Virus record (IMG/VR): IMGVR_UViG_3300028840_000472
Origin: a virus
Taxonomy: Duplodnaviria > Heunggongvirae > Uroviricota > Caudoviricetes
Length of the DNA: 64,000 nucleotides
Direction: 5' to 3' (one strand)
Below, one piece after another: positions 1 to 43,455 of the stretch; the first letter of the stretch is position 1, and each line of letters opens with the position of its first letter. The notes beneath the pieces are model-generated. The model saw only the letters and a program-made list of their open reading frames with translations, made no database searches and was not told the origin of the DNA. The position numbers and the translations under genes are program-made.

Positions 1-1365
1 CACTTCAATGCGCGGATGTACTACTGTCTTTTGCCCAGCGTCGCCAGACGTATCAAGTTCCATTTTGTAATACTTCGGCGCAGTCAGCCCGCCCGTCCCG
101 GTCCATGCCGTACCGTCAAGCGTTGACGATGCCAGCGTCGAACCCGTTGCATACGGATCAATCCCGGAGAAGATCGTGCTGAAGCGTGCGACATTAGTGA
201 CCCAGTTGCGCTGTATCGCCGTCGTTCCATCCGGGTAATCAAGAAACACGGCGATGTCCGCATCGGTCAATGTCTGATTGTCTGCAATCAGGTTGAACGT
301 CAGCTTGTCCGTTGTCGTAGATGCAAGGTCAACGTATTGCGCTGGCAGCTTGAATGCAAAAGGCCGCGCAGAATTTGTGTCTGCATCCGTGCTGATCTGA
401 ATCGAAAACTTGTCGCTCCCGCCGAACATGGCCGGTGAGTCTGTAACGTAAACAGAATCATTGTTGATTGCGACACCCATGCCATTGCGGTATTCAAAGC
501 GGTGTAACTTTCCGCTGGTAGTGTCATCACAGTTGTATATGGCAACCTGATGCTGTTCTGCATCCATCGCCTCGAATGGTGTAAAGTCTGGATGCCACCG
601 GCACCCCTTGAAGTTCACATTCACGGTATCTTCGCCGCCAGCCGTAGTGGCGACAAGCCCTGTACCCGTGCAGCTTGCCATTGATATTCCATCAAGAATC
701 ACAGTTCCACCGCCAGCACCAAAAGATGTGTTGGTGATGATATTAGATGGATTACCGACAACCTCCCCGCCAAGCCACTCCACAGTCCCACCATTGGCAA
801 CCTGAATCAGATTGTTATTGTTTATGCTGCTCGCGGCTGCAAGGTTCACGTTAACCATTCGCACTTTACTGCCGTCACCACTCTGTGTGATACAGACATC
901 GGCATTAGTTGTACCCGTTACAACGGAGCAATCCTGCAAATAGACAATCGTTGCCTGACCAACAGTATCAACGGTCGAGTCATCACCGACAAGCTGCATA
1001 CCACGGACATCGACATTATTCTGAAACTCAAAGTCAAAGATTGTCGTGGTTATATCCTCACGCGCACCCGGCTTGTATTGATCTGCCGCATTATCGTCAA
1101 CGCTATACAATCCGACGAAAGCACCTGTCTGAACCCCGCCAGATACGGTGATATTCCCGGCTGGTGTATAAGTATTGTTGTGTAAGTGACTAAAGCAAAA
1201 ATCATCGCCGGGAACGTAGCCTGTCGTCGGCACCGATACAGCCGCTTCCAATGAACTGTAATAGCCAGCCGTGCCCAATGCGCCGAACGATACCGTCTGC
1301 TGCGTTGCATACCTGCCACCGTCGCCCGTGGCTGTGCCGTCATGCTTGATGTAAAAGAAAGCCAT
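1..1365 (-). CDS. Tailspike / tail-fibre-like protein with right-handed beta-helix-like repeats (partial; 3' end lies before window start)
   Basis: Uninterrupted minus-strand frame from the ATG at 1363-1365 (TAATG overlap with the stop of the upstream gene) to position 1. It is absent from the ORF track only because it is open-ended. Translation MAFFYIKHDGTATGDGG... contains Asn/Gly/Thr-rich beta-helix-type repeats (NVNLAASSINNNNLIQVANGGTVEWLGGEVVGN). Confidence 0.4.
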   Translation of the reverse strand, partial: MAFFYIKHDGTATGDGGRYATQQTVSFGALGTAGYYSSLEAAVSVPTTGYVPGDDFCFSHLHNNTYTPAGNITVSGGVQTGAFVGLYSVDDNAADQYKPGAREDITTTIFDFEFQNNVDVRGMQLVGDDSTVDTVGQATIVYLQDCSVVTGTTNADVCITQSGDGSKVRMVNVNLAAASSINNNNLIQVANGGTVEWLGGEVVGNPSNIITNTSFGAGGGTVILDGISMASCTGTGLVATTAGGEDTVNVNFKGCRWHPDFTPFEAMDAEQHQVAIYNCDDTTSGKLHRFEYRNGMGVAINNDSVYVTDSPAMFGGSDKFSIQISTDADTNSARPFAFKLPAQYVDLASTTTDKLTFNLIADNQTLTDADIAVFLDYPDGTTAIQRNWVTNVARFSTIFSGIDPYATGSTLASSTLDGTAWTGTGGLTAPKYYKMELDTSGDAGQKTVVHPRIEV

Positions 1366-1877
1366 TACAGATATTCTCCCGGCAGCTTATCCCACGTCTG
1401 TTCCTTTTCATCGGTCAGGAACCACGACACGCCGTTGACGTTGTTGAAGCGTGTCGCAATCGCCTGCCATTCACTTGTCGGCACGCCAAGGTAAGCGGCT
1501 CGCGCTGCATCGTTTGCGCCGCCGCGCAATTCGACGGCTTGAAAGAACGGGTAAGCAGCGAAGAACTGCGACGCATCGTCCAGCGTCATGCAGCGTCCAA
1601 GCACGCGCCGGTCGTAGTCAGCCTGCGGTTGAAACTCCGCCGTGTCCGTCGGCGGCTGTTCGTTGCGTACAAGTGCCATCGATTGCGACACTTCCCTGCG
1701 GGCAAGCGTGTCATCGATCGCCGTGTATATCGACACCGCATAGGCATCCAGATCCGTACCCTGCAACACGCGCCTGTCCATAACGTAATCGGATCCGCCG
1801 TCGTCGATGAAGCGATAGCGCACTTCGATCCGCGTGCCGTTCGGAACTGCGTAGACGATTTCGTGCGACGTAATCAT
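1365..1877 (-). CDS. Hypothetical virion-associated protein (170 aa)
   Basis: ORF track; 4-nt overlap with the upstream 660-aa gene; sits in the structural gene string. Confidence 0.35.
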   Translation of the reverse strand: MITSHEIVYAVPNGTRIEVRYRFIDDGGSDYVMDRRVLQGTDLDAYAVSIYTAIDDTLARREVSQSMALVRNEQPPTDTAEFQPQADYDRRVLGRCMTLDDASQFFAAYPFFQAVELRGGANDAARAAYLGVPTSEWQAIATRFNNVNGVSWFLTDEKEQTWDKLPGEYL

Positions 1878-3856
1878 ATCGACACCCAGCTGCCAGCGTT
1901 ATCGAAGCCGCTGTCTGCGACATACGTCGCTTCGTACACGTTTTCGTTTCCTGAAAGTTCGGCCAGTGTGCTGGCATCGTACAGCCGCACTTCCGTGCCG
2001 GGTTGCAAGCCGGTTAGCGTGAACGTGTACTGCGCCGGCGGCGTGAACGTGAAACCGTCGTCGAACGTCATATAGTCGACCGTGCCCGTGCCCCTGTTCG
2101 TGATGAAACAGCCCGTCGAGAAGTACGCTTCCGTCGTGTAGGCGTCGCCGGTCTTGTCGACCAGTCGGGTACTGCGCAGTCGCGCTGTCGACACCCACGC
2201 TTCCGTCGTGCTGGTATCGGCGAACTTCGCCTGCTGCTTGTCGTATGCCTGTGTTAGCGCGTTGTTCTTTGCGTCGATGTGGTACGTCGCCTTGTGCCCG
2301 CTGTTCAGCACCTGACGACCGCGCGCCGTGCCGGCTTCGAACCAGTTGTTCGCAACCTGCGGCGGTTCGCCGGATGCCGATGATGTGTTGACCAGAATCC
2401 ATTCCTGCGTCAGCCCGTCGCCGGCCTGATACAGTTCGCGGATTGTGCCCTTACTGCCGCCGCCGGTGCTTACGACAGCGCTGACCGTGACCGTCGCCGT
2501 GACGCTGACCTGCACGTACCAGATGCCGCTGTTCAGGACGGATTCGTCAATGAACGACGCCGTATGCAGCAGGGCGCTTGCTGCCGTTGATGTCGTAACC
2601 TCGCTGTCCGTGCCCATGGCGATCGTGAATATTGTTTCGCCGGTGAACGTCTGCGCGCCTTCGAACGGTTCGAATGCGTATTTCCAAGCACGCGCGACAA
2701 ACGGTCCGTAGGTTGTCGACGCTGTTGACGATGCCCAGTACGTTGTCAGCACGTCTTCGCTGACAAGGCCGCTTGCTGTCGCAACGCCCTGCACGTGGTT
2801 CGTGCGCGCCGTTGCACTGCCCTGCGTTAACACGAACAGGGCCGAAGGGATCACTGTGCCGTCCGTCTGTGCATGTGTGGCGTCGACCGTGAAGATCTCG
2901 CTGACGGTTGACTGCCCGCCGGTTTGCGTCCACAGGATGTCCGGGTTCGTCCATGTCGGATTAACGAATTCCCACGTCGTGCTGTTGTTCGCCGTGACGT
3001 CGCGCGTGTTATTGACCGACACGTACTTGTTGACGCGGATCGTTTCGTTCGCCGCGCTTGACTGGAAGCCGTAGCTGTCCGACAGGATGATCGGCCCGTC
3101 GAATGTGGCGAATGTACTGGCGACGACGACGTAGTCGTTTGCGACACCAGCCCCTTGAAACTTCAGGTTATTGCCGTACGTGTTCCCCTTCAGGCGCGCA
3201 CCGTCGTACATCAGGTTCGTGAAGGAAACGTCGTACGCGTACAGGAAGCTGCCAGTCTGGAACAGCGTGCTGTGTGCGTACACCGTGCCGCAGTTGACGT
3301 TATGCAGCATAACCGTCGCGCTTGTGTTCGCCTGTATGTAAGCGAAGCCTAGCGTCGTGATGGCGTTATTGCTATTCCAGTACCAGCCGCCCAGCGATTC
3401 GCCTTCGAACAATGCACCGACCGCGAAGTACGACCCGTTCTGGACGATAATCTCTTCGTCCTGCGAGATCGCCTGATTATACAAACCACCGACCATGTGA
3501 TTTGTACCGTTGCCGATGGTGTGCGGGGATGCGCCCACGTCCCATTCCGACGTCGCTTTCAGTACCAGCTTCCAGTCGTTGCCGTAATCGGCGTCGTAGT
3601 TGATCTGGTTCTTTGCGACGGACAGGTCGTCGTTAACCGACGGGACGGTTTCAAACGGCGGCGTCACGCGCAGCACGTCGGTGCGTCCTGCGCTGGCGTA
3701 GGCGTAGCGCATCTGCCCTGTCGCGCCGCCGGTGCTGGATACGATCGCCAGATGGTAGCCGACATAGGCACCCAGACCGGTAGCCTGAATAGTCGAAGCG
3801 GTCGCTGATACGACCGCTGCATCTAGGTTGTTACTTGTCTGTGTTCTTGCGGCCAT
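1874..3856 (-). CDS. Large beta-rich structural protein (660 aa), putative tail fibre / virion protein
   Basis: ORF track; Thr/Ser/Gly/Asn-rich composition typical of fibre or spike proteins; downstream of the portal in the same operon. Confidence 0.35.
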   Translation of the reverse strand: MAARTQTSNNLDAAVVSATASTIQATGLGAYVGYHLAIVSSTGGATGQMRYAYASAGRTDVLRVTPPFETVPSVNDDLSVAKNQINYDADYGNDWKLVLKATSEWDVGASPHTIGNGTNHMVGGLYNQAISQDEEIIVQNGSYFAVGALFEGESLGGWYWNSNNAITTLGFAYIQANTSATVMLHNVNCGTVYAHSTLFQTGSFLYAYDVSFTNLMYDGARLKGNTYGNNLKFQGAGVANDYVVVASTFATFDGPIILSDSYGFQSSAANETIRVNKYVSVNNTRDVTANNSTTWEFVNPTWTNPDILWTQTGGQSTVSEIFTVDATHAQTDGTVIPSALFVLTQGSATARTNHVQGVATASGLVSEDVLTTYWASSTASTTYGPFVARAWKYAFEPFEGAQTFTGETIFTIAMGTDSEVTTSTAASALLHTASFIDESVLNSGIWYVQVSVTATVTVSAVVSTGGGSKGTIRELYQAGDGLTQEWILVNTSSASGEPPQVANNWFEAGTARGRQVLNSGHKATYHIDAKNNALTQAYDKQQAKFADTSTTEAWVSTARLRSTRLVDKTGDAYTTEAYFSTGCFITNRGTGTVDYMTFDDGFTFTPPAQYTFTLTGLQPGTEVRLYDASTLAELSGNENVYEATYVADSGFDNAGSWVSI

Positions 3857-4039
3857 GGATTCGCTTACTCGAAGCCAGTGGCGGACAGAAAAGCAGACAA
3901 CATATCGCGGATAGCAGCGACCGTTTCCGGTTCCTGCGGATGCGTTGCCGGCGCTGCGTCGACTTCAAGTCCCCATCGCCCGGACGGGCAGATGGCTGCA
4001 CGTACTTGGATGTCGTCGCCTTCGAAGAGAATTTGCTGA

Positions 4040-4423
4040 TCACTGAACGACATTATCTTCAGGCGCTTGCGACATGAACAGATTCAGACGAAGCCCGACA
4101 AGGATGCGATCACCCTGCCGGCCAATCACGAAGCCCGCTTCGCTGTCGTCGTTGTCATCGGAAGGCCCGAAGTTCTCGCTGTAGACGACGCGCCCCTGAT
4201 CATCGGCGACGTAGTAGCCCATGACCCGTTCCTTTTCCCCCTTTTCCAGTTCGAACAGAATGTCGGGGTAGACGCCGCCTTCCCACAGTTCCGGCTGCAG
4301 CTTGACCGGTGCGTAGCCGTAGCCGGACAGTTCGCCGTTGTCGACGAACAGATGCACGCTGTCCAGATGCACGACCAGCGCGCCCATAAAGAGATCATGC
4401 CCGTATGGTGTGACCTGAATCAT
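4040..4423 (-). CDS. Hypothetical acidic protein directly downstream of the portal gene (127 aa)
   Basis: ORF track; stop-start adjacency with the portal gene. Confidence 0.35.
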   Translation of the reverse strand: MIQVTPYGHDLFMGALVVHLDSVHLFVDNGELSGYGYAPVKLQPELWEGGVYPDILFELEKGEKERVMGYYVADDQGRVVYSENFGPSDDNDDSEAGFVIGRQGDRILVGLRLNLFMSQAPEDNVVQ

Positions 4424-5920
4424 TTAGCCCTGTTCCTTGATGCCTGCAGCCTTGCCGTCCGCATCGCGTACGATCTCGAAGCTGCGTTGCAGTGGAGTGA
4501 CGCCGGCGCTTTGCATAAGCCCGTCGCCGCTGGTGTCGCTGTCGTTCTTGATCTTCAGCTTTTCGTCGTCGACGCTGGTGCCGTCCGGGATAATCTCGCC
4601 TTCCTTCAGGTTGTGCAGGAACGTGTCTTGCGAGATCTCGCCGGCCTGCTTCGCCTTCATTAGCGCGATCAGTTTGTCCGCTGCCATTTGCGACCCGACG
4701 AAGTCCTTGTTCAGTGTTAACTTGATCTTCTTGATTTCGCCTTCGCTGACGTTCAACCATTCCGCGTACCACTTCAGAATCTGCGTTACGGCTTCATCTG
4801 CGACACCAGCCAGTGCGGCAAGGATCGACCCTTCGCCGCTTTGTCGCATTCGGTGCGTGTCCGCTGCTTCGACGCCCTTCTTCTGCTCTTCGAGCATCCG
4901 CGCGCCCAGCACAGCCATCGCGTTTTCCTTGTCCTTCTTCAGATCCCGGAGCGCGCCCAGCCCCTGTCCAGAGTATTCGAGATACTTAGCGTCGGCTTGC
5001 GGGTTGTCTGTGACCCACGCGACGCCGCTGCCGATCGTGTACGTGTTCTTCGCATTGAATCCCATAAGGACCGGAGTCGGAAGCGCTGTAAAGTGTGCGC
5101 CGTGTTCAAGGTCGGCGCTTGTGCGGTAGTGCGAAAGATTGACGTCTGCAAGGTCAAGTAGTGGCGGCTTCTTCGGTGCGGGTTCGTCGTCGGTCGCGTT
5201 GATGAACTTGAAGGGAATGTAGTCAAGCTGCTTGCCGTTGATTTCCGGGACAATGGCTTCGCCGTGTCGCACCCACTGATCCTTGTCGTTTTTGCGATAG
5301 ACAAGATGCTGATAGACGAAACGCTTTTCGTCTGCTGGCGAATCGCCGTCAGCTTTCGCAAGCCGAAGCAGCCGGATCTGTGTTTTTGTTTCAGGTTCAA
5401 AAGCGTCTTTGCCATAGTCGTTGTACTCTTCTGCGAGTGTGACCATCACCAGCTGCATGACGCCCTTCACGCGTTCAGTGCGCCAGTTCAGGATGTTCTC
5501 TGCCTTGTACTGCGATATGTAGGGACGGTTGTCTTCGCCTTCTTCCGTTGCTGCGTCGACCAGTAAACCGAAGCGACCGACTTCGACCTGCTCGCGTATT
5601 ACGCGTCGAAGCAACACGTCGACGTTGCTGCCTTCTTCGGTGACGTCGTTCAGGTCTTCTTTTTTCGACTTCGGGAAGTCAAGGATGTATTCCTTGCGGA
5701 AGATCGCGCCGGACAGCGCGTCGACAGTGCGCCCGGTAGCGCCGAAGTACAATGCACGCATCTTGTACGCGCTGTACTTGCCGCCGGTTTGGCCTGTCAG
5801 TTGTGGTAGGTATTTCGTGCCGCGCGCCTTGACGGCATCTGAACCTGCGGCGGTGTCGCGGCAGCGTTCCCAGAATGGCGCATACTTGTCATGCTGCGGA
5901 TGTTTACTATCGATCGGCAT
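4424..5920 (-). CDS. Portal protein (498 aa)
   Basis: Size and position immediately downstream of the terminase large subunit; general portal-like character. Call is by synteny. Confidence 0.55.
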   Translation of the reverse strand: MPIDSKHPQHDKYAPFWERCRDTAAGSDAVKARGTKYLPQLTGQTGGKYSAYKMRALYFGATGRTVDALSGAIFRKEYILDFPKSKKEDLNDVTEEGSNVDVLLRRVIREQVEVGRFGLLVDAATEEGEDNRPYISQYKAENILNWRTERVKGVMQLVMVTLAEEYNDYGKDAFEPETKTQIRLLRLAKADGDSPADEKRFVYQHLVYRKNDKDQWVRHGEAIVPEINGKQLDYIPFKFINATDDEPAPKKPPLLDLADVNLSHYRTSADLEHGAHFTALPTPVLMGFNAKNTYTIGSGVAWVTDNPQADAKYLEYSGQGLGALRDLKKDKENAMAVLGARMLEEQKKGVEAADTHRMRQSGEGSILAALAGVADEAVTQILKWYAEWLNVSEGEIKKIKLTLNKDFVGSQMAADKLIALMKAKQAGEISQDTFLHNLKEGEIIPDGTSVDDEKLKIKNDSDTSGDGLMQSAGVTPLQRSFEIVRDADGKAAGIKEQG

Positions 5921-5959: not shown

Positions 5960-7402
5960 TTACAGTCCGACGATGTTGACCACCGCTTCTTCGTGTTTGG
6001 CCTGCAGAAGTCGATAGCGGCATTCGTCCGCGATATGATCTTCTGCATCCGTGTCTATGTCGTCCGTGTCACGTTCCAGCCGGCTTAACGTGGGCACGGT
6101 TCGGACGAACTGTACACAATTCTGAAAAATAAGCAAGCCCGGTTCCTCGAAAGTGGGAGCGATTACCGCTTTCAGGCGGTTGCGAATGATCTCCCAGCCT
6201 GCCTTCCGACTGCCCGGTGCTTTATTCGCCGGTTTCCATGTAACGCCCTTGGCTTCCATTTCTTTAGCGATGCAGTGCCCGTCTTCCGTGGTGTAGATCG
6301 CAGAATCAGCCGGCCCCGGTTCCACGCGCCCCTGCAGCCCCATGGCGGATTCCCGTTCGAGGATCCCTGTCGCAACGTCCTTCGCGAGCATCTTCGACCC
6401 GACGTTCGGTTCCTGCCTTTCGGGATCCCAGCCGTACCATTCGGCGATTCGGAACACGGTCCCGCGCGGGAAGTGTCGCACTGTGCCGTCCGTCATGGTT
6501 GCCGGCGTGCCGTCCGATTCCGCCCACCATGCGACAGAAAACGGCTTCGAGGATCCCCAGTCGAACGACCGGTCGATGTGCCACGATGTCGGCACGGCGA
6601 ATGGCCGGATCACGTGGCGGCTTCGATCCCAGACGTCGTCGAACATGCCGCCGGCGACGATGTCCCAGTCGCCTTCGCGCATCGCCCGCACAAGTTCCTT
6701 GTTGCCCAGTCCTTCCAGCCGCTGTTCGTATTCGGGATCCGATTCCATTAGCGCCTGATTGTCTTCCAGCTTCGCCGGGATGTACTGGCGCTTCAGACCG
6801 CCTTCGCCGCGCGGCATCGTCATGATCTCGAAGGCCGGCTGCAGGTCGATGAATGTCTTCTTCACCCAGTTGTGCCCGACGCCGCCGGGGTTCGCGCCGT
6901 TGATGATACGCGGGAAAAAGCCCTGCCACAGCGGATCCAGATCCAGACCCGCCAGTCGCACACGACCGCGCAGGTAGCGGTAAATGCTGTCCGTGAAGTG
7001 CGTTAATTCGTCGACCGCCAGCACGTGTATTTCCGCGCCCTGATAGTCGAACTTGTTCTTCTCATGCTGGCAATGGCACAGATGAATCTTCGCCTTGTTC
7101 CAGAACTGGATGTAGTTCTTCTGCGTGTTGATCGACACGTACTTCTTCGCGACCCATGGTGCGAGCATGGCCGGGAAGGATGTCGGACCTTCCATGTGAT
7201 TCTTCCACAGGTCGGGGTAGGTACGGCGGAACAGGTAGAACTGCAGGAAGGGAACCTTCGAACACCAGTAGATCGCCGCGCAGCGCATTAGGTGCGACTT
7301 GCCGCCGCCGGCTGCGCCCCCGTACAGCAGTTCTGTCGCATTGGTCGTCAGCGCCCGCGTCTGCTTCGGTTGCAGATCGATGTCGACGTCGGCGGCTGGC
7401 AT
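5960..7402 (-). CDS. terL: Terminase large subunit
   Basis: Walker A motif LLYGGAAGGGKSH at the N-terminus, 480 aa, with a nuclease-type C-terminal half. Confidence 0.85.
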   Translation of the reverse strand: MPAADVDIDLQPKQTRALTTNATELLYGGAAGGGKSHLMRCAAIYWCSKVPFLQFYLFRRTYPDLWKNHMEGPTSFPAMLAPWVAKKYVSINTQKNYIQFWNKAKIHLCHCQHEKNKFDYQGAEIHVLAVDELTHFTDSIYRYLRGRVRLAGLDLDPLWQGFFPRIINGANPGGVGHNWVKKTFIDLQPAFEIMTMPRGEGGLKRQYIPAKLEDNQALMESDPEYEQRLEGLGNKELVRAMREGDWDIVAGGMFDDVWDRSRHVIRPFAVPTSWHIDRSFDWGSSKPFSVAWWAESDGTPATMTDGTVRHFPRGTVFRIAEWYGWDPERQEPNVGSKMLAKDVATGILERESAMGLQGRVEPGPADSAIYTTEDGHCIAKEMEAKGVTWKPANKAPGSRKAGWEIIRNRLKAVIAPTFEEPGLLIFQNCVQFVRTVPTLSRLERDTDDIDTDAEDHIADECRYRLLQAKHEEAVVNIVGL

Positions 7403-7741
7403 CTATTCCGTGCGCAAGCGCAGGTTCAGTGTCGGCCCCGTATCGTCGTCGTCGTTCGTCGGCGGATCTTCGGCGCGCAGCTTCGGTGTCGTGTACTGCG
7501 CGATCTCGCTGTGTGCCTTCATGCGCAGGTTCAGGGGAATGTTCTGTGTGTTCGCCAGCTTCGCCAGCTCGACCAGCGGATGATAGTCATCCGGGACGCC
7601 GTCGTCGGCCCGCATCAGTTCCAGCAGGTCCGCCCGTTCCCGGTCCATTTGCCGGCGTTGCGTGCCCGGACGCGGCGTCTTGATCGGTTCACCGACCCGC
7701 AGCGCCGGTGCTTTCGAGGATGTCAGCGGTCCGTCGTCCAT
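7403..7741 (-). CDS. terS: Putative terminase small subunit (112 aa)
   Basis: Stop abuts the terL start; basic N-terminal half and acidic C-terminus; preceded by a sigma70-like TTGCCG-17-TATATT promoter. Confidence 0.4.
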   Translation of the reverse strand: MDDGPLTSSKAPALRVGEPIKTPRPGTQRRQMDRERADLLELMRADDGVPDDYHPLVELAKLANTQNIPLNLRMKAHSEIAQYTTPKLRAEDPPTNDDDDTGPTLNLRLRTE

Positions 7742-7869
7742 GTGCGGGCAATATAGCGGGGTGTCGCAGTGTCGGCAAGTACCGGGATCACAGTGCGGGA
7801 ATTTCTGACGGCGGCACGCGGCCAGCGGGGATGCGGACGCGAATCGTTCGTATTTACATCATCATCCAG

Positions 7870-8210
7870 AAGTGTCGTCGCGCGTACGCGCGCGCGCATA
7901 TATGGGCAAAGTTTTTTTTCGACCCTTCAAAAAAATAGGCGCACCACCCCCTTTTATATACGAATCAATAACCTGCAGCAAAGGTAGCAGTGAGGTAGCA
8001 CCTGTGCAGCGCTGTAAGTCCCTGTTTTACAACGGAAGGTAGCACGGAATCACAGGTAGCACAGAAAAAACGTGATTTTCGAAATTAAAAAATTTTCCCC
8101 ATATAGCAAGTGATTCACACAAAAAAATAAAGGTTAACTTGTTGAATTTTAAGCAAAAAAAAGGTAGCGACCATGGTGCTACCACGGTGCTACCTTTGCT
8201 ACCTTGTGAG
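7870..8210. repeat. Iteron-like GGTAGCA(C) array with AT-rich spacer and an alternating (CG)n(TA)n tract; copy A of a roughly 200-bp duplicated non-coding element
   Basis: GGTAGCA copies at about 7983, 7994, 8038, 8055 and 8163, with inverted GTGCTACC copies at about 8176, 8187 and 8197. A roughly 100-bp AT-rich tract lies between the two repeat sets. The 26-nt alternating Pu/Py stretch cgcgcgtacgcgcgcgcgcatatat is at about 7876-7901. The segment is homologous to 45345..45545. Confidence 0.6.
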
Positions 8211-8367
8211 GGAAATCAATAACTTGCGACTGTGCGTCGTGTTACCCGATTGAATTACTTCATCTTTTTCCCTTGTAGCCAGTTTACGGAGATAAGAACC
8301 AATGAAAACAGCGCAACGGAAACCTGTCGAGGGGAATCCCCACAGCGCTGCACAGCAGCCTATACGA

Positions 8368-8628
8368 TCACCGACCCGATGGCAAGCCCTTGTCGTGATC
8401 GTGGCTACAGCCGCACCACAGGCCGCTGTACGTGCCGTCCGCCTTGATGCTGTAGCACTTCATGTCGCCGACCCGGAATTCAACCACGGTCGCCTTCCCT
8501 GCAGACCGCACCAGCGCCCCTGTACCGCGTTCCGCTGTCGCATAGATGTCAGCGGTCCCCATAGTCAGGAAAATGGCTGTTAGCGCCCCACAGACGCCCG
8601 TACGGTCAAGAATGTGTCTCTTCTTCAC
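8368..8628 (-). CDS. Small secreted protein (GTG start, 86 aa) with N-terminal signal peptide
   Basis: ORF track; GAGAGGA RBS 8 nt upstream of the GTG; hydrophobic N-terminal segment ILDRTGVCGALTAIFLTMGTA; four Cys. Confidence 0.4.
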   Translation of the reverse strand: MKKRHILDRTGVCGALTAIFLTMGTADIYATAERGTGALVRSAGKATVVEFRVGDMKCYSIKADGTYSGLWCGCSHDHDKGLPSGR

Positions 8629-8648
8629 TGTCTAATCCTCTCGCTAGG

Positions 8649-9023
8649 CTAGAACTGATCCAGCATCCCCCAGTCGATCGGGGTGCCTGCCGGCTTCTTG
8701 CTGTCGTAGTCGATGTGCCATTCGGCGACCAGTTCGTCTTCGTCGCCCCAGACCGGGATCACCAGCTTCGCACTGATCGTCTTGTTTACGCGGTTCTCCA
8801 CGTACCCTTCCGCGCCGTAGCTGCTGCTGCCCTGACCGACCCAGCCGCCCCGGACGCATTTCTTCCAGTCCAGCCGGCCTTTGATCTTGCCCTTGTTCTT
8901 GCCCTTCACGAAGCGGGGAAGCGCGTCGACGATGTCGTCGCCGAACAGCCGGCGGGCGTACTTCTCGCCGAAGTCCCCGGAAAGATAAGCGGTGTTTTCT
9001 TTGAAAGCGGCGTATGTGGTCAT
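8649..9023 (-). CDS. Hypothetical protein (124 aa; start moved to the internal ATG with the conserved leader)
   Basis: The ATG at 9021-9023 is preceded by GAGGACACGACA and the conserved promoter at 9065-9077. Confidence 0.5.
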   Translation of the reverse strand: MTTYAAFKENTAYLSGDFGEKYARRLFGDDIVDALPRFVKGKNKGKIKGRLDWKKCVRGGWVGQGSSSYGAEGYVENRVNKTISAKLVIPVWGDEDELVAEWHIDYDSKKPAGTPIDWGMLDQF

Positions 9024-9064
9024 TGTCGTGTCCTCAGTGTGTAAGTACAGACTACCCACTGACC

Positions 9065-9077
9065 GCATAAATGTCAA
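9065..9077 (-). promoter_or_regulatory. Conserved early promoter -35 block TTGACATTTATGC (copy 1), spacer 17, -10 TAGTCT
   Basis: Exact 13-mer shared by at least 13 loci; 54-nt leader ends in GAGGACACGACAATG. Confidence 0.6.
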
Positions 9078-9109
9078 CACCTTTTTCGACCTTTTTTCGA
9101 GAATGGTTC

Positions 9110-9415
9110 TCATTTACACCACAGCCCCGCGCGTGTCGCGACGCACGTGATGTTCGGGAATTCGGTATGCTTGATGATCCAGATCGGCCCGTCTTCGGTG
9201 TCGTAGCGGTGCACGTCGCCGGGGAATGGCTGTCCCTGTACCACGGGATCCGGCCCCGGTCGTGCCTTCTCGCTGTACTCGCGTTCTGCCGGCCTGTCGT
9301 CGCCTATCAGGCGTTTTTCCACGACAGTGCACGACTTGCCCACGACCGCCGCCAGAATGCCCAGAATGGACACCACGATGACCAGTTCGATGATCGTGAA
9401 GCCCTTCACTTGCAT
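9110..9415 (-). CDS. Type IV prepilin-like / pseudopilin-like protein (101 aa)
   Basis: N-terminus MQVK-G-FTIIELVIVVSILGILAAVV matches the class III (prepilin peptidase) signal: short basic leader, Gly at -1, Phe at +1, Glu at +5 and a hydrophobic helix. C-terminal CVATRAGLWCK gives a disulfide-loop-like pair. Confidence 0.6.
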   Translation of the reverse strand: MQVKGFTIIELVIVVSILGILAAVVGKSCTVVEKRLIGDDRPAEREYSEKARPGPDPVVQGQPFPGDVHRYDTEDGPIWIIKHTEFPNITCVATRAGLWCK

Positions 9416-9720
9416 TTCTTCAAATCCCCTTTCTTGTGTTCATCCCACCATTGCGACAACGCCGGGTTTTCATCGAAATCGTAGTTCATGCGTGCCAGCG
9501 CCCGACACGCGCTGCACAGCAGCTGCTTCATCGTGACGCGCCCGGTTTCAGCGGCTTCTGCGATCGCGATCCCGCGCGCATGGTCTGCCCCGTACTGCGG
9601 TTCCCACGAATGCGGCCCCGGATGCCCTGCATCCAGATAACACGCTGCCGGTTCAGTGCTGTAGTCAGTGAAGCGCTGCCCACCGTCACGCGTACGCCCG
9701 CACGGTCCGCGACACGGCAT
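9406..9720 (-). CDS. Hypothetical Cys-rich protein (104 aa)
   Basis: TAATG overlap with the MazG stop and ATGA-type overlap with the pilin start. Only the C-terminal part of track ORF 9406..10143 is used, because the N-terminal part overlaps MazG out of frame. Confidence 0.35.
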   Translation of the reverse strand: MPCRGPCGRTRDGGQRFTDYSTEPAACYLDAGHPGPHSWEPQYGADHARGIAIAEAAETGRVTMKQLLCSACRALARMNYDFDENPALSQWWDEHKKGDLKKCK

Positions 9721-10241
9721 TACCGGTTGTCCCCGTCGCCATGGATCAGCCCCCGGTCTTCCCGGTCGCCCAGTTTTGACAGGTTGTCGTTTGCGACACT
9801 TTCCATCGTGCCGGCCATGGTGTCGATGATATACAGCAGCGCGCCCAGCAGAAGCCCCAGATGGTGAAGGATCTTGTCGCGCCGGCCTTCGAGCGCTTCC
9901 CCGCCCCGGATGACCTTCTTCCCCTGTTCGGCGATCGCGCCGGCATGAACGAACATCCAGCCGGCGGCATCCAGTGCCGACCCGTAGTGTCCGCCGACAA
10001 TTTGTATCGCGCCCAGTGTGCGCCCGCACGTGATCGCGACGGCGTTGCAGTACCACAGCACGTCGCCGCATTCCTTCAGGATGTCGTCGGTCATGACCGA
10101 CTTCGACGCCAGCTTCATGTACGTTTCGGATGTCTCGCCGCACAGCCCCAGCGCTGGATACGCAATGTCGCTGCCGGCCTTCGGGTAGATGGCGAACTTG
10201 AATGCCCGCCCGCTATAGTCGTCAAGTTGTTCTGGTGTCAT
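9720..10241 (-). CDS. mazG: MazG-like nucleoside triphosphate pyrophosphohydrolase
   Basis: EExxE...ExGDxLW-type motif: LCGETSETYMKLASKSVMTDDILKECGDVLWYCNAV. Confidence 0.6.
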   Translation of the reverse strand: MTPEQLDDYSGRAFKFAIYPKAGSDIAYPALGLCGETSETYMKLASKSVMTDDILKECGDVLWYCNAVAITCGRTLGAIQIVGGHYGSALDAAGWMFVHAGAIAEQGKKVIRGGEALEGRRDKILHHLGLLLGALLYIIDTMAGTMESVANDNLSKLGDREDRGLIHGDGDNR

Positions 10242-10503
10242 CGTATTCGGTCCTTTCGTTTTCGTCGAGTATTTTCTTCAGTGCCGCGCGCAGTCCGGCT
10301 TCGTATTGCTTGTATTCTTTCGATTCGGATCGACCAAAACCATCGCGTGAACAGCTGCCCCAGTAGTGCAGCAGGTCAACGCCTTCGCCGCAGCATAGAT
10401 GCAGATTCGCCGTGACAATAACTTCTTGCAAGACGGCGATTTCGTCTTTCAGATCTTCGACCTGCTTGCGCAGCCGGTCTTCTTCGCTGTTAAGTATCCC
10501 CAT
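10222..10503 (-). CDS. Hypothetical protein (start uncertain)
   Basis: ORF track 10222..10566, trimmed to an internal Met to limit overlap with the upstream gene. Confidence 0.3.
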   Translation of the reverse strand: MGILNSEEDRLRKQVEDLKDEIAVLQEVIVTANLHLCCGEGVDLLHYWGSCSRDGFGRSESKEYKQYEAGLRAALKKILDENERTEYDDTRTT

Positions 10504-10675
10504 CGTCTTCGTCCCGCCAGCTAACATCCAGCGCGTAGCTTTTGCCGTTGACAACAATGCGGACAAAACTGCCCGCGACTTCTTCCACGAATGCGACCTG
10601 TTGTTCCATCGCTTCTTCCGCCTGCGTGTGCGTCAGTCGATCTTCGTAGGCTAAAAAACCGTAGTTCTGCGACAT
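10490..10675 (-). CDS. Hypothetical acidic protein (61 aa)
   Basis: TAATG overlap with the upstream gene; AGGAACG RBS. Confidence 0.4.
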   Translation of the reverse strand: MSQNYGFLAYEDRLTHTQAEEAMEQQVAFVEEVAGSFVRIVVNGKSYALDVSWRDEDDGDT

Positions 10676-10953
10676 TATACGTTCCTGTACATTTCCTTGA
10701 ATTTTGCAACGTTGAAACCGTTGCACGCCTTGCACCGTTCTGCGTCGTCGATGTAACCCAGCCCGCCGCACTTCTTGCACGGGTAGATAATTTTCTTCAG
10801 GTTCTGGATCGTGCTGTACAGCTGCGAATTCGCGCGCTGCACGGCTTGATGTTTTTGCTTCATGTCATCGTAGCGGTTGTTCGCGATGCGTACGCGTTGC
10901 GACATGGCGAACAAATCATTCCCCAGCTTTTTTATTTTTTCGTCAGGCGTCAT
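10675..10953 (-). CDS. Zinc-ribbon protein (CKKCGG...CKAC)
   Basis: ORF track; CxxC...CxxC pair. Confidence 0.45.
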   Translation of the reverse strand: MTPDEKIKKLGNDLFAMSQRVRIANNRYDDMKQKHQAVQRANSQLYSTIQNLKKIIYPCKKCGGLGYIDDAERCKACNGFNVAKFKEMYRNV

Positions 10954-11141
10954 TCCAGCATCCCACGCACAAGCTTTTCGCAGTAGGTTTCTTGCCGGTT
11001 GTTCAGCATGTCAGCGACTTCCCTGATTGTGTCGCGTCGGCACCGCTTCAGTTCTTCTTCGTGCCGGCAGTATACGCACGACGGCGGTTCACCGGACCAC
11101 ATGACTTCGTTCGGGTAAGGTGTTCCATGCTTACACGGCAT
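10950..11141 (-). CDS. Small Cys-rich protein (63 aa)
   Basis: ORF track; 4-nt overlap coupling. Confidence 0.35.
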   Translation of the reverse strand: MPCKHGTPYPNEVMWSGEPPSCVYCRHEEELKRCRRDTIREVADMLNNRQETYCEKLVRGMLE

Positions 11142-11397
11142 TTTTTCTGTCCCTTAGCCACAGCGTGCACATCGTGAAGGCGATGCCGTGTGTTGTGTAA
11201 TGTTCTGTCGCGTGCGAACTGGTGTACACGATTAACGGATGCAAATGATTGTCGTGTCGCATACGTAGCACTTCCCAGTCGCCGTTCGTCTTGACTTCAC
11301 GCCAGCCGTGTTCGATCAGCCATGCCTTGAAGTCGGCCAGCTTGTCGATGTGCAGCATGTTACGCGATGTCGTCACGCATCCGTCCTGCGTGTGCAC
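11131..11397 (-). CDS. Hypothetical protein (88 aa)
   Basis: ORF track. Confidence 0.4.
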   Translation of the reverse strand: MHTQDGCVTTSRNMLHIDKLADFKAWLIEHGWREVKTNGDWEVLRMRHDNHLHPLIVYTSSHATEHYTTHGIAFTMCTLWLRDRKNAV

Positions 11398-11666
11398 TTG
11401 ATGCGCAGTTCGCGCTGCTCGCGCTCACACCACGCGACAACATTCTTCGCTTTCTCGAAGCTTTCGTAGCGCCTGTCGCTGAAGCTGCCGCGAAATATCG
11501 GGCACGTAATCGTCTTGATCTTGAAGAAGCGATTCCCGTCGTCGTCAAGGCATTCGTATATGTGCCATTGCTTGTGCTTCTCGTAGTATTCCATCACCTT
11601 GAAAAAGCCCTTGATCGCAGCCGCAAGTAACAGCAGGATCGGTAGCAGGTAGATTTCGTCGCCCAT
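11373..11666 (-). CDS. Small membrane protein with N-terminal transmembrane segment
   Basis: ORF track; LLPILLLLAAAIKGFF hydrophobic segment. Confidence 0.4.
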   Translation of the reverse strand: MGDEIYLLPILLLLAAAIKGFFKVMEYYEKHKQWHIYECLDDDGNRFFKIKTITCPIFRGSFSDRRYESFEKAKNVVAWCEREQRELRIKCTRRTDA

Positions 11667-11989
11667 TATTGTTGCTGCTCCTTCGGCGGTGCTTCTTCGT
11701 AGTGGTACATGTACATCTTCTTTTCCTCGATGCGTTGCGACACGCCTTCCAGTACGCGCGGGTAGCTGATAACGCGCGACGTTGCGATCATTGCCAGCAC
11801 GGCATACAGGTCCGTCAGTTCGTCTTCGAGTGCTTCAGCATTCGTCGGCGATGGTTCACGCGACGGAAAACGTTCATCCGGTCCGTGTCGCAACAGCTTC
11901 GATATTGCCTGCTGCACTTCGGCGCACTCTTCCGCCAGCACGATCAGCAGTTCAACCTGTCGCGCGCTAAGTTCGACTATTCCTTGCAT
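11666..11989 (-). CDS. Hypothetical all-alpha protein, possibly MazG/NTP-PPase-like
   Basis: ORF track; EECAEVQQAISKLLRHG resembles a MazG-family metal-binding helix. Weak. Confidence 0.3.
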   Translation of the reverse strand: MQGIVELSARQVELLIVLAEECAEVQQAISKLLRHGPDERFPSREPSPTNAEALEDELTDLYAVLAMIATSRVISYPRVLEGVSQRIEEKKMYMYHYEEAPPKEQQQ

Positions 11990-12575
11990 TCATGTGCACC
12001 TTTAACGCGTCGACAATATCGATCGCGTCCTTTATCCCTTCCAGCTTCAGGACACGCCGCAGCGGGCGTTCGGTTTCGTTGACGTCGTTCCACTTGCCAT
12101 GCAGTTGCGACAAAACATCGCGCAGCGCGGACATGTAACCGATCGGGATCGGACCCGGATCCCCCGGCAGCTGCGATTCCAGTTGCGCGGCATACTCCTG
12201 CGCCTTGTGCAGTTCTTCCTTGAACTTCGCCAGCTGTTCGCGATGCTGGTCGCGTTCCTTCGCCGTTTGCATGGCGAGCCGGTCGTAAGCGTCATTCTGC
12301 GCTTTCAGCGAATCGTTAACCGCTTTGAACTTGTCCTTCAGTTCGCGAAGTTCCTTTTCCAGCTGGCAGCGCGCGTCCAGCAGCCCGCCTTCCACGACAC
12401 ACTGCCCGGCAGACAGCATAAAGTTGTCCGCTTCCAGTCGTTCGATGTCGCGCTGAATGTTACGCGTCAGATGTCGCGCCATGCGCCCCGCTGCATTGCG
12501 TTGTATCCCGCTGTCCTGCAGGTACTGGTAGATCGTCACTTCCAGCGACGGCTTATCCTGTCTTTCTTCGGTCAT
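11967..12575 (-). CDS. Coiled-coil protein (about 202 aa)
   Basis: ATGA overlap with the upstream stop at 12572-12575; long heptad-like region. Confidence 0.45.
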   Translation of the reverse strand: MTEERQDKPSLEVTIYQYLQDSGIQRNAAGRMARHLTRNIQRDIERLEADNFMLSAGQCVVEGGLLDARCQLEKELRELKDKFKAVNDSLKAQNDAYDRLAMQTAKERDQHREQLAKFKEELHKAQEYAAQLESQLPGDPGPIPIGYMSALRDVLSQLHGKWNDVNETERPLRRVLKLEGIKDAIDIVDALKVHMNARNSRT

Positions 12576-12859
12576 GTGTTCCACCTGAATGCGATATAAC
12601 TGCACGCCTTATTCGGCAAGTTCTCCGCCGGCGTGCCCTTCGGCACCAGCAGAATAATGTCGTCCCCGTTGCGGCTGGTATGGTACACATCCGCGTCGGG
12701 GAATTGATTGCGACAAAACGCGACGCTTTTATCGACCGATAGCGAATAGAATGCGACGCCGTGTCCGTTCTTGAATGCTGCGCGAACGTTCACGTCGTCG
12801 ACCGGGTACTGGTGCGCTTCCAGTCGATCCGGGTTATCCGCTTTCCAATCAAACGTCAT
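12572..12859 (-). CDS. Hypothetical protein (95 aa)
   Basis: ORF track. Confidence 0.4.
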   Translation of the reverse strand: MTFDWKADNPDRLEAHQYPVDDVNVRAAFKNGHGVAFYSLSVDKSVAFCRNQFPDADVYHTSRNGDDIILLVPKGTPAENLPNKACSYIAFRWNT

Positions 12860-12880
12860 CGACCTTCGGGAATTTGTATT

Positions 12881-13063
12881 TCATGGCTTCCCCCTTCTGA
12901 ACTTGTCGCGTACGCTGGCGTCGTCTTTTGCGACACCGGCATCCGCTTCCGCTTCGGCTTCCTTGAACCAGCCGAACAAGTGACGCCCCGCGATCTTGAT
13001 CAACGGGAATAGCATGATCACTGCCAGAACAATGATCACTGCTGCACCGACGTATCGCATCAT
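12881..13063 (-). CDS. Small membrane protein (60 aa) immediately downstream of the SPFH gene
   Basis: AGGGGA RBS before the ATG at 13063; transmembrane segment AAVIIVLAVIMLFPLIKIA followed by a charged tail. Confidence 0.4.
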   Translation of the reverse strand: MMRYVGAAVIIVLAVIMLFPLIKIAGRHLFGWFKEAEAEADAGVAKDDASVRDKFRRGKP

Positions 13064-13074
13064 GACGGCATCCC

Positions 13075-14046
13075 CTAGCGCGAGATCTTGAACGCGTTTT
13101 CGAGTACGCCGTTCAGATCCATAAGTGAATTCGTTCCCGGTGCACCTGTCGGCACGCCGTAGACCTTGACGTTCGGTCCAAGGTTCTGCGCCCATTCGAT
13201 CGCGGCGACGTACTGCGCGCCCGGTCCTGTGTACGCGTTCGTCAACAGACGCGCGCCTTCGGCTTCTGCAGACTTCACCGCCAGAATGCCCTTCGCGATT
13301 TCTTCCTGCTTCAGTCGTTCGCCTTCACCTTCCAGCCGGCGTTTCTCGCGTTCTGCTTCGGCTTCCTTGATGCGCTTCTGTTTCTCGCCTTCGGCGATGT
13401 TCGCGATCTTGACGGCGGTATTCTCCGCCGCTTCCGCCTTGCGTTCTTCGATGATCACCTTCTGCGCGGCCATGGCTTTTTCTTCCAGTGTCGCAACGAA
13501 CTGCGCATTCGTGAAATCGATGTCGCGCAGGTTGACGGTAATCAGGAAGCCGCGTTCCTTCAGCTTGTTGTCGAGTATGGTTTGAATCGCCTGCTGTACG
13601 CCTTCACGCCCTTCGCTGGTGTAGATTTCATCCGACAGCTTCGACGGCACCTTGTCGCGTATCGCGCTGCGCAGTGCAGGGAACACGACTTCTTCCCAGT
13701 AGTCCGGCCCGATGTTTTCGTGGATCCACGGCACGCGATCAGGCTGCAGTCCCATTTCCAGCGACACGTCGATCAGTACCGGCTGACCGTCTTTCGTTTG
13801 TGTCTCGACGTCTTTCAGCACGTACTGGCGAAAGCGTACATCGTAGATCGGCACATCGTACGTGACCGGATTGATCCAGTGCAGACCGGTGTCCAGTGTG
13901 TCGTCCTGCATTCCCTGCCCGATGCCGATCTTCTTCACTTTCAAACCGGTTTCACCCGGATCGATGTCGGTCAGTCCGAACACAAAGAACAACGCCAGTA
14001 TTGAAACAAGACCGACGCCAGCGCTTAAAGATATTATGTTCCGCAT
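13075..14046 (-). CDS. SPFH / band-7 (stomatin/prohibitin/HflC-like) membrane protein
   Basis: N-terminal transmembrane segment, then an SPFH core (DVPIYDVRFRQYVL...TKDGQPVLIDVSLE...LSDEIYTSEGREGVQQAIQTILDNKLKERGFLITVNLRDIDF) and a C-terminal EA-rich coiled coil. Start set at the internal ATG (TAATG overlap). Confidence 0.75.
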   Translation of the reverse strand: MRNIISLSAGVGLVSILALFFVFGLTDIDPGETGLKVKKIGIGQGMQDDTLDTGLHWINPVTYDVPIYDVRFRQYVLKDVETQTKDGQPVLIDVSLEMGLQPDRVPWIHENIGPDYWEEVVFPALRSAIRDKVPSKLSDEIYTSEGREGVQQAIQTILDNKLKERGFLITVNLRDIDFTNAQFVATLEEKAMAAQKVIIEERKAEAAENTAVKIANIAEGEKQKRIKEAEAEREKRRLEGEGERLKQEEIAKGILAVKSAEAEGARLLTNAYTGPGAQYVAAIEWAQNLGPNVKVYGVPTGAPGTNSLMDLNGVLENAFKISR

Positions 14047-14276
14047 TAGTTGTTCCCCTGCATCTGGTTTGTTTTCGCGACTTGTGAGTACAACCAGTAC
14101 ACGCCGCATTGTGTACAGTACAAACGCTTCCCGTCGCTGACGATGCCGTGATCAGCGTCGATCGGACATTCATACATTTCTTCGTACCACAAAGATTCCT
14201 GCATACTCTGCGGATGAAGATCTTCTGTTTCGCCCTGCGATTCTGGCGGTAACATTATCGTCGACTTATTTGTCAT
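14046..14276 (-). CDS. Small zinc-ribbon-like protein (CPID...CTQC)
   Basis: ORF track. Confidence 0.4.
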   Translation of the reverse strand: MTNKSTIMLPPESQGETEDLHPQSMQESLWYEEMYECPIDADHGIVSDGKRLYCTQCGVYWLYSQVAKTNQMQGNN

Positions 14277-14619
14277 ATTCGTGTAACTCCGTTCTCATAT
14301 CACGTAGTGCAGATTCAAACTTGTCGCGGTTGCGTTCCGCGTACGCCATTTCCAGACGCCGAAGGATCAGCTGTGCATCGGAATAGACGGCATGATTCAG
14401 ATCCCGGTATACGTCGCGCATGGCAAGATCCAGATCGCCTTCCGCGCATGTGAATGTACGCTTCCATCTGACGCTTACTTCGTAGTCGCGCGTGACCTTG
14501 TACGGTGTAGACGGTTCCGTTATGTCTTCGACCTTGTACGTCGGCAGCGTCCACCATTCTTCGGCTGGTCGATAGTTCCCGGTATACTCCGGTCGCAGTA
14601 TGCGCAATAACCTAGACAC
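14266..14619 (-). CDS. Hypothetical protein (117 aa)
   Basis: ORF track. Confidence 0.4.
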   Translation of the reverse strand: MSRLLRILRPEYTGNYRPAEEWWTLPTYKVEDITEPSTPYKVTRDYEVSVRWKRTFTCAEGDLDLAMRDVYRDLNHAVYSDAQLILRRLEMAYAERNRDKFESALRDMRTELHEYDK

Positions 14620-14863
14620 GACAATTCCATCGCGTAGCGATCACAGTGAGCACACGCGCTTCTTCGATCGTGCCGTAGCGGAACGTATCAGGGTTCCACG
14701 TTTCGCGACCGGTCAGTGTCAGTTCGTCAGACTTCTGCATGGACATGCCAGCGCCGCACCCGTCGCAATCGATGTCGATCATGCTACCCTTCACGTGCAC
14801 GCGCGGATCCGTGCCGCAGAATGGACACGGCAAAAATTCTATGTTCTCGACCGTAGTGCCCAT
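14612..14863 (-). CDS. Lar-like (restriction alleviation family) zinc-ribbon protein
   Basis: LPCPFCG...CDGCG zinc ribbon near the N-terminus, as in Lar-family proteins. Confidence 0.4.
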   Translation of the reverse strand: MGTTVENIEFLPCPFCGTDPRVHVKGSMIDIDCDGCGAGMSMQKSDELTLTGRETWNPDTFRYGTIEEARVLTVIATRWNCRV

Positions 14864-15111
14864 ACTTCGTTCCTTGTGTGAGGACAGATCTTTTTGTGGT
14901 CTTCGATGATCATGTTCGCTTTTACCAGTTCATTGACACGACCGCAGACCGCGTTGATCGGCATTGCCAGCAAGTGCGACAATTCCTGTCGCGTGTAGTC
15001 GTACTGCCGGCCCGACACGATCAGCTTCAGCACTTCCGCGCGCTGCGTGCTGCCCTTGCCTGACTCAACAAGGTCGTTGTATGCCTGAATGCTTGTATCA
15101 CGTACCGCCAT
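14839..15111 (-). CDS. Winged-helix DNA-binding protein, putative transcriptional regulator
   Basis: TRQELSHLLAMPINAVCGRVNELVKANMI HTH-like stretch. Confidence 0.4.
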   Translation of the reverse strand: MAVRDTSIQAYNDLVESGKGSTQRAEVLKLIVSGRQYDYTRQELSHLLAMPINAVCGRVNELVKANMIIEDHKKICPHTRNEVWALRSRT

Positions 15112-15192
15112 AATTCACCCGTTATAGATGCGCCGGCGGGTCGGGCAATTCGAACGCAGATACGTTAACGAATTCCCGCCGACGCGATGACT

Positions 15193-16248: not shown

Positions 16249-16249
16249 G

Positions 16250-18267: not shown

Positions 18268-18304
18268 GTTTGCATCCCCTGTTCAGTTGTAACGCGACAA
18301 GTTT

Positions 18305-43434: not shown

Positions 43435-43455
43435 TCAACCATAGAGGACACGACC

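Follow-up and report, generated by a model that had tools for sequence, protein, structure and literature searches.

What does an array of short repeats do in a 625-bp gap directly upstream of the packaging genes of an uncultured tailed phage? The gap (positions 7742–8367, from here: R1) lies in a 64,000-nt stretch (from here: the window) of the Caudoviricetes genome IMG/VR record IMGVR_UViG_3300028840_000472. The initial annotation had proposed a phage origin of replication or a pac/terS recognition region, on account of copies of the heptamer GGTAGCA (from here: boxes) and an AT-rich core. The repeats, the AT-rich core and the position by the TerL gene were corroborated and found to be conserved, while a terminator, a partner copy (from here: R2) and the distance to the PrimPol gene alter the picture. 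R1 is a real, conserved and cis-regulatory element, which belongs to the phage origin or boundary regions and does not require a new category. Its build is unusual: the terminator is composed of binding sites, (CG)n tracts are present, and the partner copy sits at the other junction of early and late genes. Tentatively, we read R1 as an iteron-type origin with a partner site, like oriL/oriR of phage SPP1, an interpretation that we regard as plausible rather than probable.

The following features were assigned to R1 (the orientations 'forward' and 'reverse' refer to the direction of the late genes):

7742–8367: R1, the intergenic gap 5′ of the packaging genes
7750–7778, minus strand: sigma-70-like promoter TTGCCG-17-TATATT, scoring 9/12 in a promoter scan
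7879–7907, minus strand: motif F, CCCATATATGCGCGCGCGCG..., containing a 26-nt alternating purine/pyrimidine tract
7946–7961, minus strand: motif E, GTATATAAAAGGGGGT, TATA plus G/C-rich sequence, oriented as motif F
7963–7976, plus strand: first copy of a direct repeat, AATCAATAACCTGC
7983–8061, plus strand: four GGTAGCA(C) boxes, 'reverse' (GCTACC)
8062–8162: AT-rich centre, 25% G+C, with A/T tracts
8088–8106, minus strand: motif CTATATGGGGAAAATTTTT within the centre
8155–8197, minus strand: intrinsic terminator of the early/middle operon, consisting of a forward box and a GGTAGCG/CGCTACC arm, then U8
8177–8203, minus strand: three GGTAGCA boxes, 'forward'
8214–8227, plus strand: second copy of the direct repeat, AATCAATAACTTGC, which fits the IHF consensus WATCAANNNNTTR

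R1 thus has the clustered short repeats of an iteron-type origin, eight boxes in 221 bp, and an independent gene caller left the entire 625-bp gap non-coding, as had been claimed. The four GGTAGCA copies initially noticed at 7983, 7994, 8038 and 8055 are all present on the plus strand as given, and the reported spacings of 11 and 17 bp belong to a full series of 11, 44 and 17 bp. GGTAGCG at 8163 and the inverted TGCTACC copies at 8177, 8188 and 8197 were also placed correctly; their reading was not, as they mainly form the stem of the terminator. Neighbouring boxes can be as close as 8–11 bp, approximately one helical turn. Within the window, GGTAGCA occurs 19 times, compared with 3.9 ± 1.8 expected copies, and none of 100 shuffled sequences reached this number. 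Seven copies are located in 7983–8203, five in 45437–45536 and one at 45858, whereas the six copies scattered elsewhere correspond to about the background rate. Including GGTAGCG at 8163, R1 and R2 together hold 14 box copies, 13 of which are GGTAGCA (counting the one at 45858 in a hydrolase gene). No third box cluster was found in the 82.3 kb of the genome that were read, i.e. all of it except about 5.8 kb (record positions 87246–88079 and 1–4952).

An AT-rich unwinding element adjacent to the repeats, a further hallmark of iteron-type origins, is present in R1 and weak in R2. The stretch of about 100 bp that had been called AT-rich (8063–8162) has a G+C content of 24–25%, compared with 56% for the window. 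No other 100 bp of the 64 kb are as AT-rich, and in duplex stability the stretch shares the lowest rank. The alternating tract is indeed exactly 26 nt long (7879–7904) and the longest in the window, while the longest tracts in shuffled sequences averaged 16 nt and did not exceed 24 nt. Motif E has only two exact copies in the window, at 7946 and 45409. The 14-bp direct repeat, AATCAATAAC(C/T)TGC, likewise occurs only twice in the window, bracketing the box core of R1, and a 26-bp inverted repeat (7977–8002 and 8175–8200) lies between its two copies. A perfect 14-bp inverted repeat that connects the box array with the edge of the upstream gene (8002–8015, CTGTGCAGCGCTGT, and 8342–8355, ACAGCGCTGCACAG) may be due to chance (E = 0.15).

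By its layout, R1 is a terminator fused to an array of boxes in two opposed clusters around a bent, easily melted centre. We infer that the boxes are the sites of one phage-encoded, sequence-specific DNA-binding protein.

The partner copy and its surroundings contain the following features:

45253–45767: R2, to which a box pair within the adjoining hydrolase gene is added
45299–45326, plus strand: intrinsic terminator of the early block on the plus strand, just before R2
45347–45368, minus strand: copy of motif F, with a 22-nt alternating tract
45409–45424, minus strand: copy of motif E
45437–45536, plus strand: five GGTAGCA boxes, at 45437, 45447, 45468, 45513 and 45530
45537–45680: centre of R2, a short A/T-rich stretch, then G+C-rich DNA, then an opposed box
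45674–45680, minus strand: the opposed box, GGTAGCG
45844–45864: inverted box pair GGTAGCT...GCTACC at the 3′ end of the hydrolase gene

The initial annotation had described about 200 bp of R1 as duplicated 37.5 kb away. This was confirmed, with slightly larger limits: 7879–8105 matches 45343–45590 at 80% identity with small indels. The shared stretch of approximately 250 bp includes a 40-bp part that is 95% identical and is flanked by the inverted repeat ATATGGG(G/C)AAA(A/G)TTTTT. A comparison of R1 with R2 shows 33 of 35 box positions to be identical (94%), compared with 126 of 209 positions (60%) in the remainder. Being conserved well above the spacers, the boxes are apparently under selection. 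The five boxes of R2 are spaced by 10, 21, 45 and 17 bp, and three further opposed copies exist near this main array. In the centre of R2, the A/T-rich stretch (45537–45590, 41% G+C over 54 bp) holds the motif GGAGAAAATTTTT and is followed by DNA of 67% G+C. R2 is more than a mere duplication: it is a partner element that is conserved at the second junction of early and late genes, and a two-site origin system therefore fits better than a pac site.

How old is this arrangement? The R1-type architecture was found 5′ of homologues of the first late gene, which encodes a protein of 112 amino acids (aa), in L001, L003/L002, L281, L282 and L283/L284, all of them metagenomic and with TerL identities of 63–72%; another sequence, L004, starts exactly at the TATA-(CG)n motif. 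R2-type elements follow the hydrolase gene and precede a convergent block of small genes in L208 (a 50-kb IMG/VR contig) and L266 (a 41-kb Logan contig). In these two, the gene order equals that of the phage studied here (hydrolase, convergent block, SNF2, PrimPol, helicase), with proteins that are 45–65% identical. The two-copy design is therefore old and maintained. In all nine elements, i.e. five R1-type lineages, one partial R1 and R2 in three phages, the order along the late genes is the same: forward boxes, A/T-rich centre, reverse boxes, TATA/TAAA-GGGG(CG)n and TATATA-(CG)n. The TATA-(CG)n motif F is shared by R2, L001, L003, L004, L208, L266 and L281, and the counterpart of motif E in the relatives, TATA/TAAA-GGGGCGCGCG, is found at the same place. 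R2 elements carry additional inverted box pairs farther upstream, inside the hydrolase genes; in the L208 homologue, the pair occupies the matching position.

The initial annotation had also asked whether the array occurs in related phages. It does as an architecture, while the exact box does not: a search of IMG/VR with the box pair gave no match. In the relatives, GGTATC takes the place of the box; it is often lengthened to GGTATCAGC, or GTGATGC follows it, and single GGTAGCA copies stand alongside. Because of this, no GGTAGCA clusters were found in 107 TerL-related loci. Both copies in the phage studied here have GCTACC and all relatives have GATACC; therefore, both copies have changed together. 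This shared variant points to one trans-acting factor, or else to homogenisation between the copies. A 16-nt box pattern returned mostly chance matches from IMG/VR, yet it found L208. The 19-nt TATA-(CG)n pattern is also shared by L265; as this is an unrelated phage with the motif within head genes, the match was treated as chance. Two distant isolates with PrimPol or TerL in common, DSL-LC04 and K21lambda1, show no comparable layout in their gene maps; their DNA was not scanned for repeats. Among more distant TerL relatives, other short repeats reach 6–8 copies within 500 bp 5′ of the terminase genes (L026, L085, L091, L092, L098), e.g. AGAAAAC eight times, CGGCAAA seven times and AACCAGC seven times. 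Repeat arrays upstream of terminase genes may hence be common and lineage-specific.

What do R1 and R2 separate? The window forms, at full identity, part of a metagenomic contig of 88,079 bp (ENA ERZ27256798, k141_2638583), and a contig with the same length and another start point was found in a second sample, so that the genome assembles as a circle. The phage is an uncultured, lytic-type siphovirus of about 88 kb from a lineage so far undescribed. No close isolate phage was found; TerL alone was matched, at about 67% nucleotide and about 50% protein identity. Nearly all genes are on the minus strand:

7403–7741, minus strand: 112-aa gene in the small-terminase position, directly 5′ of the TerL gene
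5960–7402, minus strand: TerL
4424–5920, minus strand: portal
56109–59846, minus strand: tape measure, among the tail genes
47133–47594, minus strand: amidase
46381–46872, minus strand: sigma factor
45768–46376, minus strand: alpha/beta-hydrolase
43141–45252, plus strand: short early block, running toward R2
42944 down to 8368, minus strand: early/middle region with SNF2 helicase, PrimPol, SF1 helicase, PolA and many small genes

Along the direction of transcription, the late genes are ordered as R1, 112-aa gene, TerL, portal, head genes (a run partly beyond the window limits), tail genes, amidase, sigma factor, alpha/beta-hydrolase and R2. R1 separates the packaging genes from the last of the small early/middle genes, and R2 lies between convergent genes with no packaging gene nearby. 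This gene order makes R1 and R2 the two junctions of an early region of 37.5 kb with a late region of 50.6 kb. R1 itself is a composite element at the border of the early/middle genes and the late genes, which serve packaging and structure. Its placement between the replication and packaging modules in the initial annotation is correct for the packaging side and incorrect for the replication side, since the PrimPol and helicase genes are 30 kb away.

Both junctions carry a terminator on their early side. In R1, the innermost forward and reverse boxes form a hairpin of −28.1 kcal/mol (z = −6.3; 0 of 200 shuffled sequences fold as well), located after the last early/middle gene as in a rho-independent terminator. 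This explains most of what had been taken for a GGTAGCG plus three inverted copies. Equivalent hairpins followed by T6–T9 exist in L001, L003, L282 and L283 (z of −4.4 to −5.3), so that the terminator is present in five of five lineages, and the sequence of its stem tracks the local box variant. The right-hand end of R1 is thus predicted to stop the 35-kb early/middle operon. As the early block facing R2 ends in a terminator as well, both elements are shielded from early transcription.

An origin would account for these observations as follows. The opposed arrays would place an initiator on both sides of the AT-rich centre, and R2 could be another origin, or a site that acts in cis as partner or barrier and is bound by the same protein, as for oriL/oriR of SPP1 or ori/crr of P4. 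The terminators on the early side would keep early transcription from sweeping the complex off R1 and R2. We favour an origin because of the opposed arrays, the melt-prone centre, the helical-turn spacing, the restriction to two loci, the shielding and the precedent of SPP1.

Several findings weigh against an origin. GC skew, initially proposed as a check, gave no signal: third-position GC and AT3 skew along co-oriented genes was noisy and without a step at either R1 or R2. The genes for PrimPol and the helicase are 30 kb from R1, and no initiator family was recognised among the phage proteins; PrimPol, SF1 helicase, SNF2 helicase and PolA were recognised by their catalytic domains only. The centre of R2 is only weakly AT-rich in this phage, and we know of no role of TATA-(CG)n motifs in iteron origins. 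A pac site or a late promoter region would be just as much in place directly 5′ of a small gene by TerL, and the family of this small gene and the R1 architecture always occur together.

As a possible, although on balance unlikely, alternative, R1 could be a switch from early to late transcription, composed of a terminator and a late promoter region, with the boxes as operator or activator sites or as the loading site of an antiterminator for the 50-kb late operon. R2 would then be a second regulated site, or a roadblock that stops late antisense transcription from entering the early genes. The location of R1 and R2 exactly at both early/late junctions and the terminator in R1 agree with such a switch. 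So does the distribution of promoters: strong sigma-70 promoters in at least 12 near-identical copies, which carry an A/T UP element (AAAGGnGTTGACATTTATGC ... TAnnnT) and are followed by a near-identical leader and ribosome-binding site GAGGACACGACAATG, span 9062–36143 (minus strand) and 43042–44287 (plus strand), while none exists in the late region. Late transcription must therefore start at or near R1.

Two candidate start signals were noticed there. The first is located in the centre: about 50 nt 3′ of the terminator, a motif (C)ACTATAxGGG(G)AAAxTTTT is conserved in L001, L003, L281 and L283, and in four of the R1 lineages with this stretch a TATAAT-like hexamer is followed by GGGGAAAATTTT; the hexamer is absent from L282 and from R2 of this phage. 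The second is the promoter at 7750–7778, which stops 8 nt short of the start codon (ATG) of the 112-aa gene. This gene lacks a Shine-Dalgarno sequence, and a −10-like hexamer (TATAYT) was seen by eye 6–10 nt before the ATG of the first late gene, here and in L003, L149, L281 and L282. Because both hold, a leaderless mRNA is suggested for the start of the late operon.

The number and arrangement of the boxes, 8–9 sites over 220 bp opposed around an AT-rich centre, would nevertheless be unusual for operators. Motifs E and F are not obvious promoters: the scan detected no sigma-70 −10/−35 pair at either of them, most TATA-(CG)n copies lack the conserved final T of a −10 element, and by eye no −35 element is conserved across the lineages. 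At R2, the late operon is without a closing intrinsic terminator, which agrees with a switch, and R2-type elements lack an R1-like terminator and have a shorter centre; however, a promoter in R2 would yield antisense RNA only, because R2 lies between convergent genes. Moreover, the sigma factor encoded beside R2 is absent from relatives that keep the elements.

Apart from the promoters named above, the second AT-richest spot of the window (17700–17960, minus strand) contains two copies of CTATAAAAATAGG(G/T)G. Together with the promoter-like site TTGTTATAAT 5′ of the gene at 17243–17680, it looks like a separate operator region.

That R1 is a pac site is rather unlikely, even though the 112-aa gene and TerL lie directly downstream. 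The boxes would then bind the small terminase on both sides of a bent, AT-rich region of cleavage, comparable to P1 pac or pacL/pacC/pacR of SPP1, and R2 would be a secondary or decoy site. The 112-aa family co-occurs with the R1 architecture in every lineage for which upstream DNA is available, and both are absent from TerL relatives of at most 62% identity. Homologues with 32–53% identity are encoded at the same place in L001, L003/L002, L149, L281, L282 and L283. The identity of the 112-aa protein as TerS was not confirmed, though, as it has no match in Pfam, PHROG, NCBIfam or PDB; a word-based search for homologues yielded nothing beyond the protein itself, and the single-sequence AlphaFold2 model consists of three helices at low confidence (predicted local distance difference test score of 58). 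Circular assembly with varied start points fits, without proving it, a circularly permuted genome packaged by the headful mechanism. This mechanism is likely in distant TerL relatives, the Tlacuache-like phages, which are reported to use it (PMC9119093). A precedent is SPP1, in which pac overlaps promoters and the start of the TerS gene and TerS sites lie on both sides of the cut (PMC6316719). On the other hand, known pac systems offer no role for a second copy that persists at the far junction over long divergence, and the ends of related metagenomic contigs cluster near R1 at differing positions, which is the pattern of assemblies broken at a repeat rather than of a defined cut.

It is very unlikely that the boxes act in RNA, with GGUAGCA repeats binding a protein that opens the terminator (TRAP- or HutP-like) or belonging to a small RNA sponge. 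Three GGUAGCA repeats 9–11 nt apart do form the 5′ side of the terminator hairpin, whose stem follows the box variant in all five lineages. Yet the array 3′ of the terminator reads GCUACC on the same transcript, so that one RNA-binding specificity cannot serve both clusters, and R2 has no terminator to regulate. Folding of the arrays on both strands of R1 and R2 gave no structure signal (z of −0.6 to +0.7), and there was no Rfam family at gathering score and no tRNA match; therefore, the boxes most likely act as DNA.

That R1 and R2 are a selfish or neutral repeat copied to two places, similar to a miniature inverted-repeat transposable element with terminal inverted repeats, is hardly credible: although the shared module is flanked by an inverted repeat and the 26-bp inverted repeat is bracketed by the 14-bp direct repeat, there are two copies only, no transposase was seen, conservation of the boxes far exceeds that of the spacers, the homology of R1 and R2 has limits (7879–8105) that differ from those of the inverted or direct repeats, and the positions of both are syntenic in relatives with proteins only 50–70% identical, so that a mobile element is ruled out. 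A protelomerase target of the N15 telRL type (TACGCGCGTA-like core) was discarded, as the element contains no palindrome; the (CG)n tract is not palindromic because TATATA stands on one side only. No protelomerase was found among the annotated proteins, several large proteins being without annotation. An attP site was discarded as well, for want of a palindrome and of a recombinase gene.

The origin reading can be extended to a more comprehensive proposal, which is speculative and to which we assign a small chance. R1 and R2 would be a conserved cis pair, bound by one phage protein and bracketing a 37.5-kb early/replication domain. They would serve as origin and as barrier against transcription, and possibly against forks, thus setting the switch from early to late. 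The TATA-(CG)n motifs would be the start or unwinding signals of a non-canonical machinery, possibly encoded in an 11-kb block by the portal gene. This block runs from the portal to a MuF-like head-morphogenesis gene (window positions 1–4423, continuing in L290 at 7455–19001) and consists of 12 co-oriented genes for proteins of 127, 660, 170, 472, 200, 162, 810, 127, 462, 72, 337 and 62 aa. None of the 12 has a sequence match in PHROG, Pfam or PDB; members of 660–814 aa and of 810–811 aa are kept in L281–L287.

Two gene products encoded next to R2 were considered as readers of the element. The protein p202 was rejected as the box-binding protein, as it is an alpha/beta-hydrolase (HGF and GFSNGA motifs) that occurs also in unrelated podophages without the element. 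The sigma factor was rejected because it is absent from L208 and L266, which keep the element. The hydrolase gene is the last late gene, with about 30 homologues in 5.8 billion proteins, and podophages with a P22-type portal (L269–L271, L273, L275) have the same gene between TerL and portal. The sigma factor is ECF/FliA-like, encoded at the end of the late operon after a 260-bp gap, and without a match in isolate phages. In the head-to-tail region, outside the window (L190, 1174–6998), genes for an MptE-like protein, an NAD-dependent epimerase and a methyltransferase stand among structural genes. These sugar-modification genes may point to glycosylation of virion proteins or to modified DNA.

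Should R1 and R2 be origins or barriers bound by an initiator, they would be a defined cis-element for an uncultured lineage without a known initiator, and the box sequence would be a handle for finding the initiator protein. The terminator made of binding sites and its conserved partner would then also represent a clear example of a large phage genome split into temporal domains. If R1 is a pac site or a late operator, it would be an ordinary phage regulatory region in a new lineage.

Among known systems close to R1 and R2, SPP1 offers a direct precedent for an origin with a partner site. Its oriL and oriR are two distant, similar cis-elements with direct repeats as well as an AT-rich unwinding element; one copy is located between genes of the late region, in a segment with transcription signals on either side, and the second site was proposed to be a barrier of bound protein that may block forks (PMC6316719). 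R1 and R2 likewise are two distant cis-elements in one genome with direct repeats along with an AT-rich element. They differ in that oriL lies inside the initiator gene, whereas neither R1 nor R2 is near a replication gene, and in that oriL/oriR are bound by gp38, whereas no gp38-like initiator or DnaB-type helicase is recognisable here. Moreover, the repeats are arranged in two opposed clusters, the innermost pair of which doubles as a terminator, and (CG)n tracts are present.

In the satellite phage P4, ori and crr consist of short octamer boxes in both orientations, and both loci are needed in cis for replication by a single protein with a primase domain. The P4 sites are 4.5 kb apart and their binding protein is known, whereas R1 and R2 are 37.5 kb apart and this phage encodes a PrimPol in which no DNA-binding domain has been demonstrated. 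The origins of staphylococcal pathogenicity islands (SaPI) consist of two short iteron sets flanking an AT-rich region of about 80 bp, which is melted by the initiator. The boxes of R1 resemble them by being placed on both sides of an AT-rich region, while the SaPI origin directly follows the rep gene, is present as a single copy and has a self-loading helicase as its initiator.

In P1 pac and lambda cosB, short motifs bound by the terminase recur on both sides of a bent or cleaved centre, within the small-terminase gene or just upstream of it. The packaging sites of P1, SPP1 and lambda differ from R1 in that they are single, that their binder is a confirmed TerS and that no terminator is built from the sites. 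Finally, R1 shares with rho-independent terminators the G+C-containing hairpin followed by 6–9 U at the end of an operon, and it differs from them in that its stem is the very motif that is repeated on both sides and varies with that motif from phage to phage.

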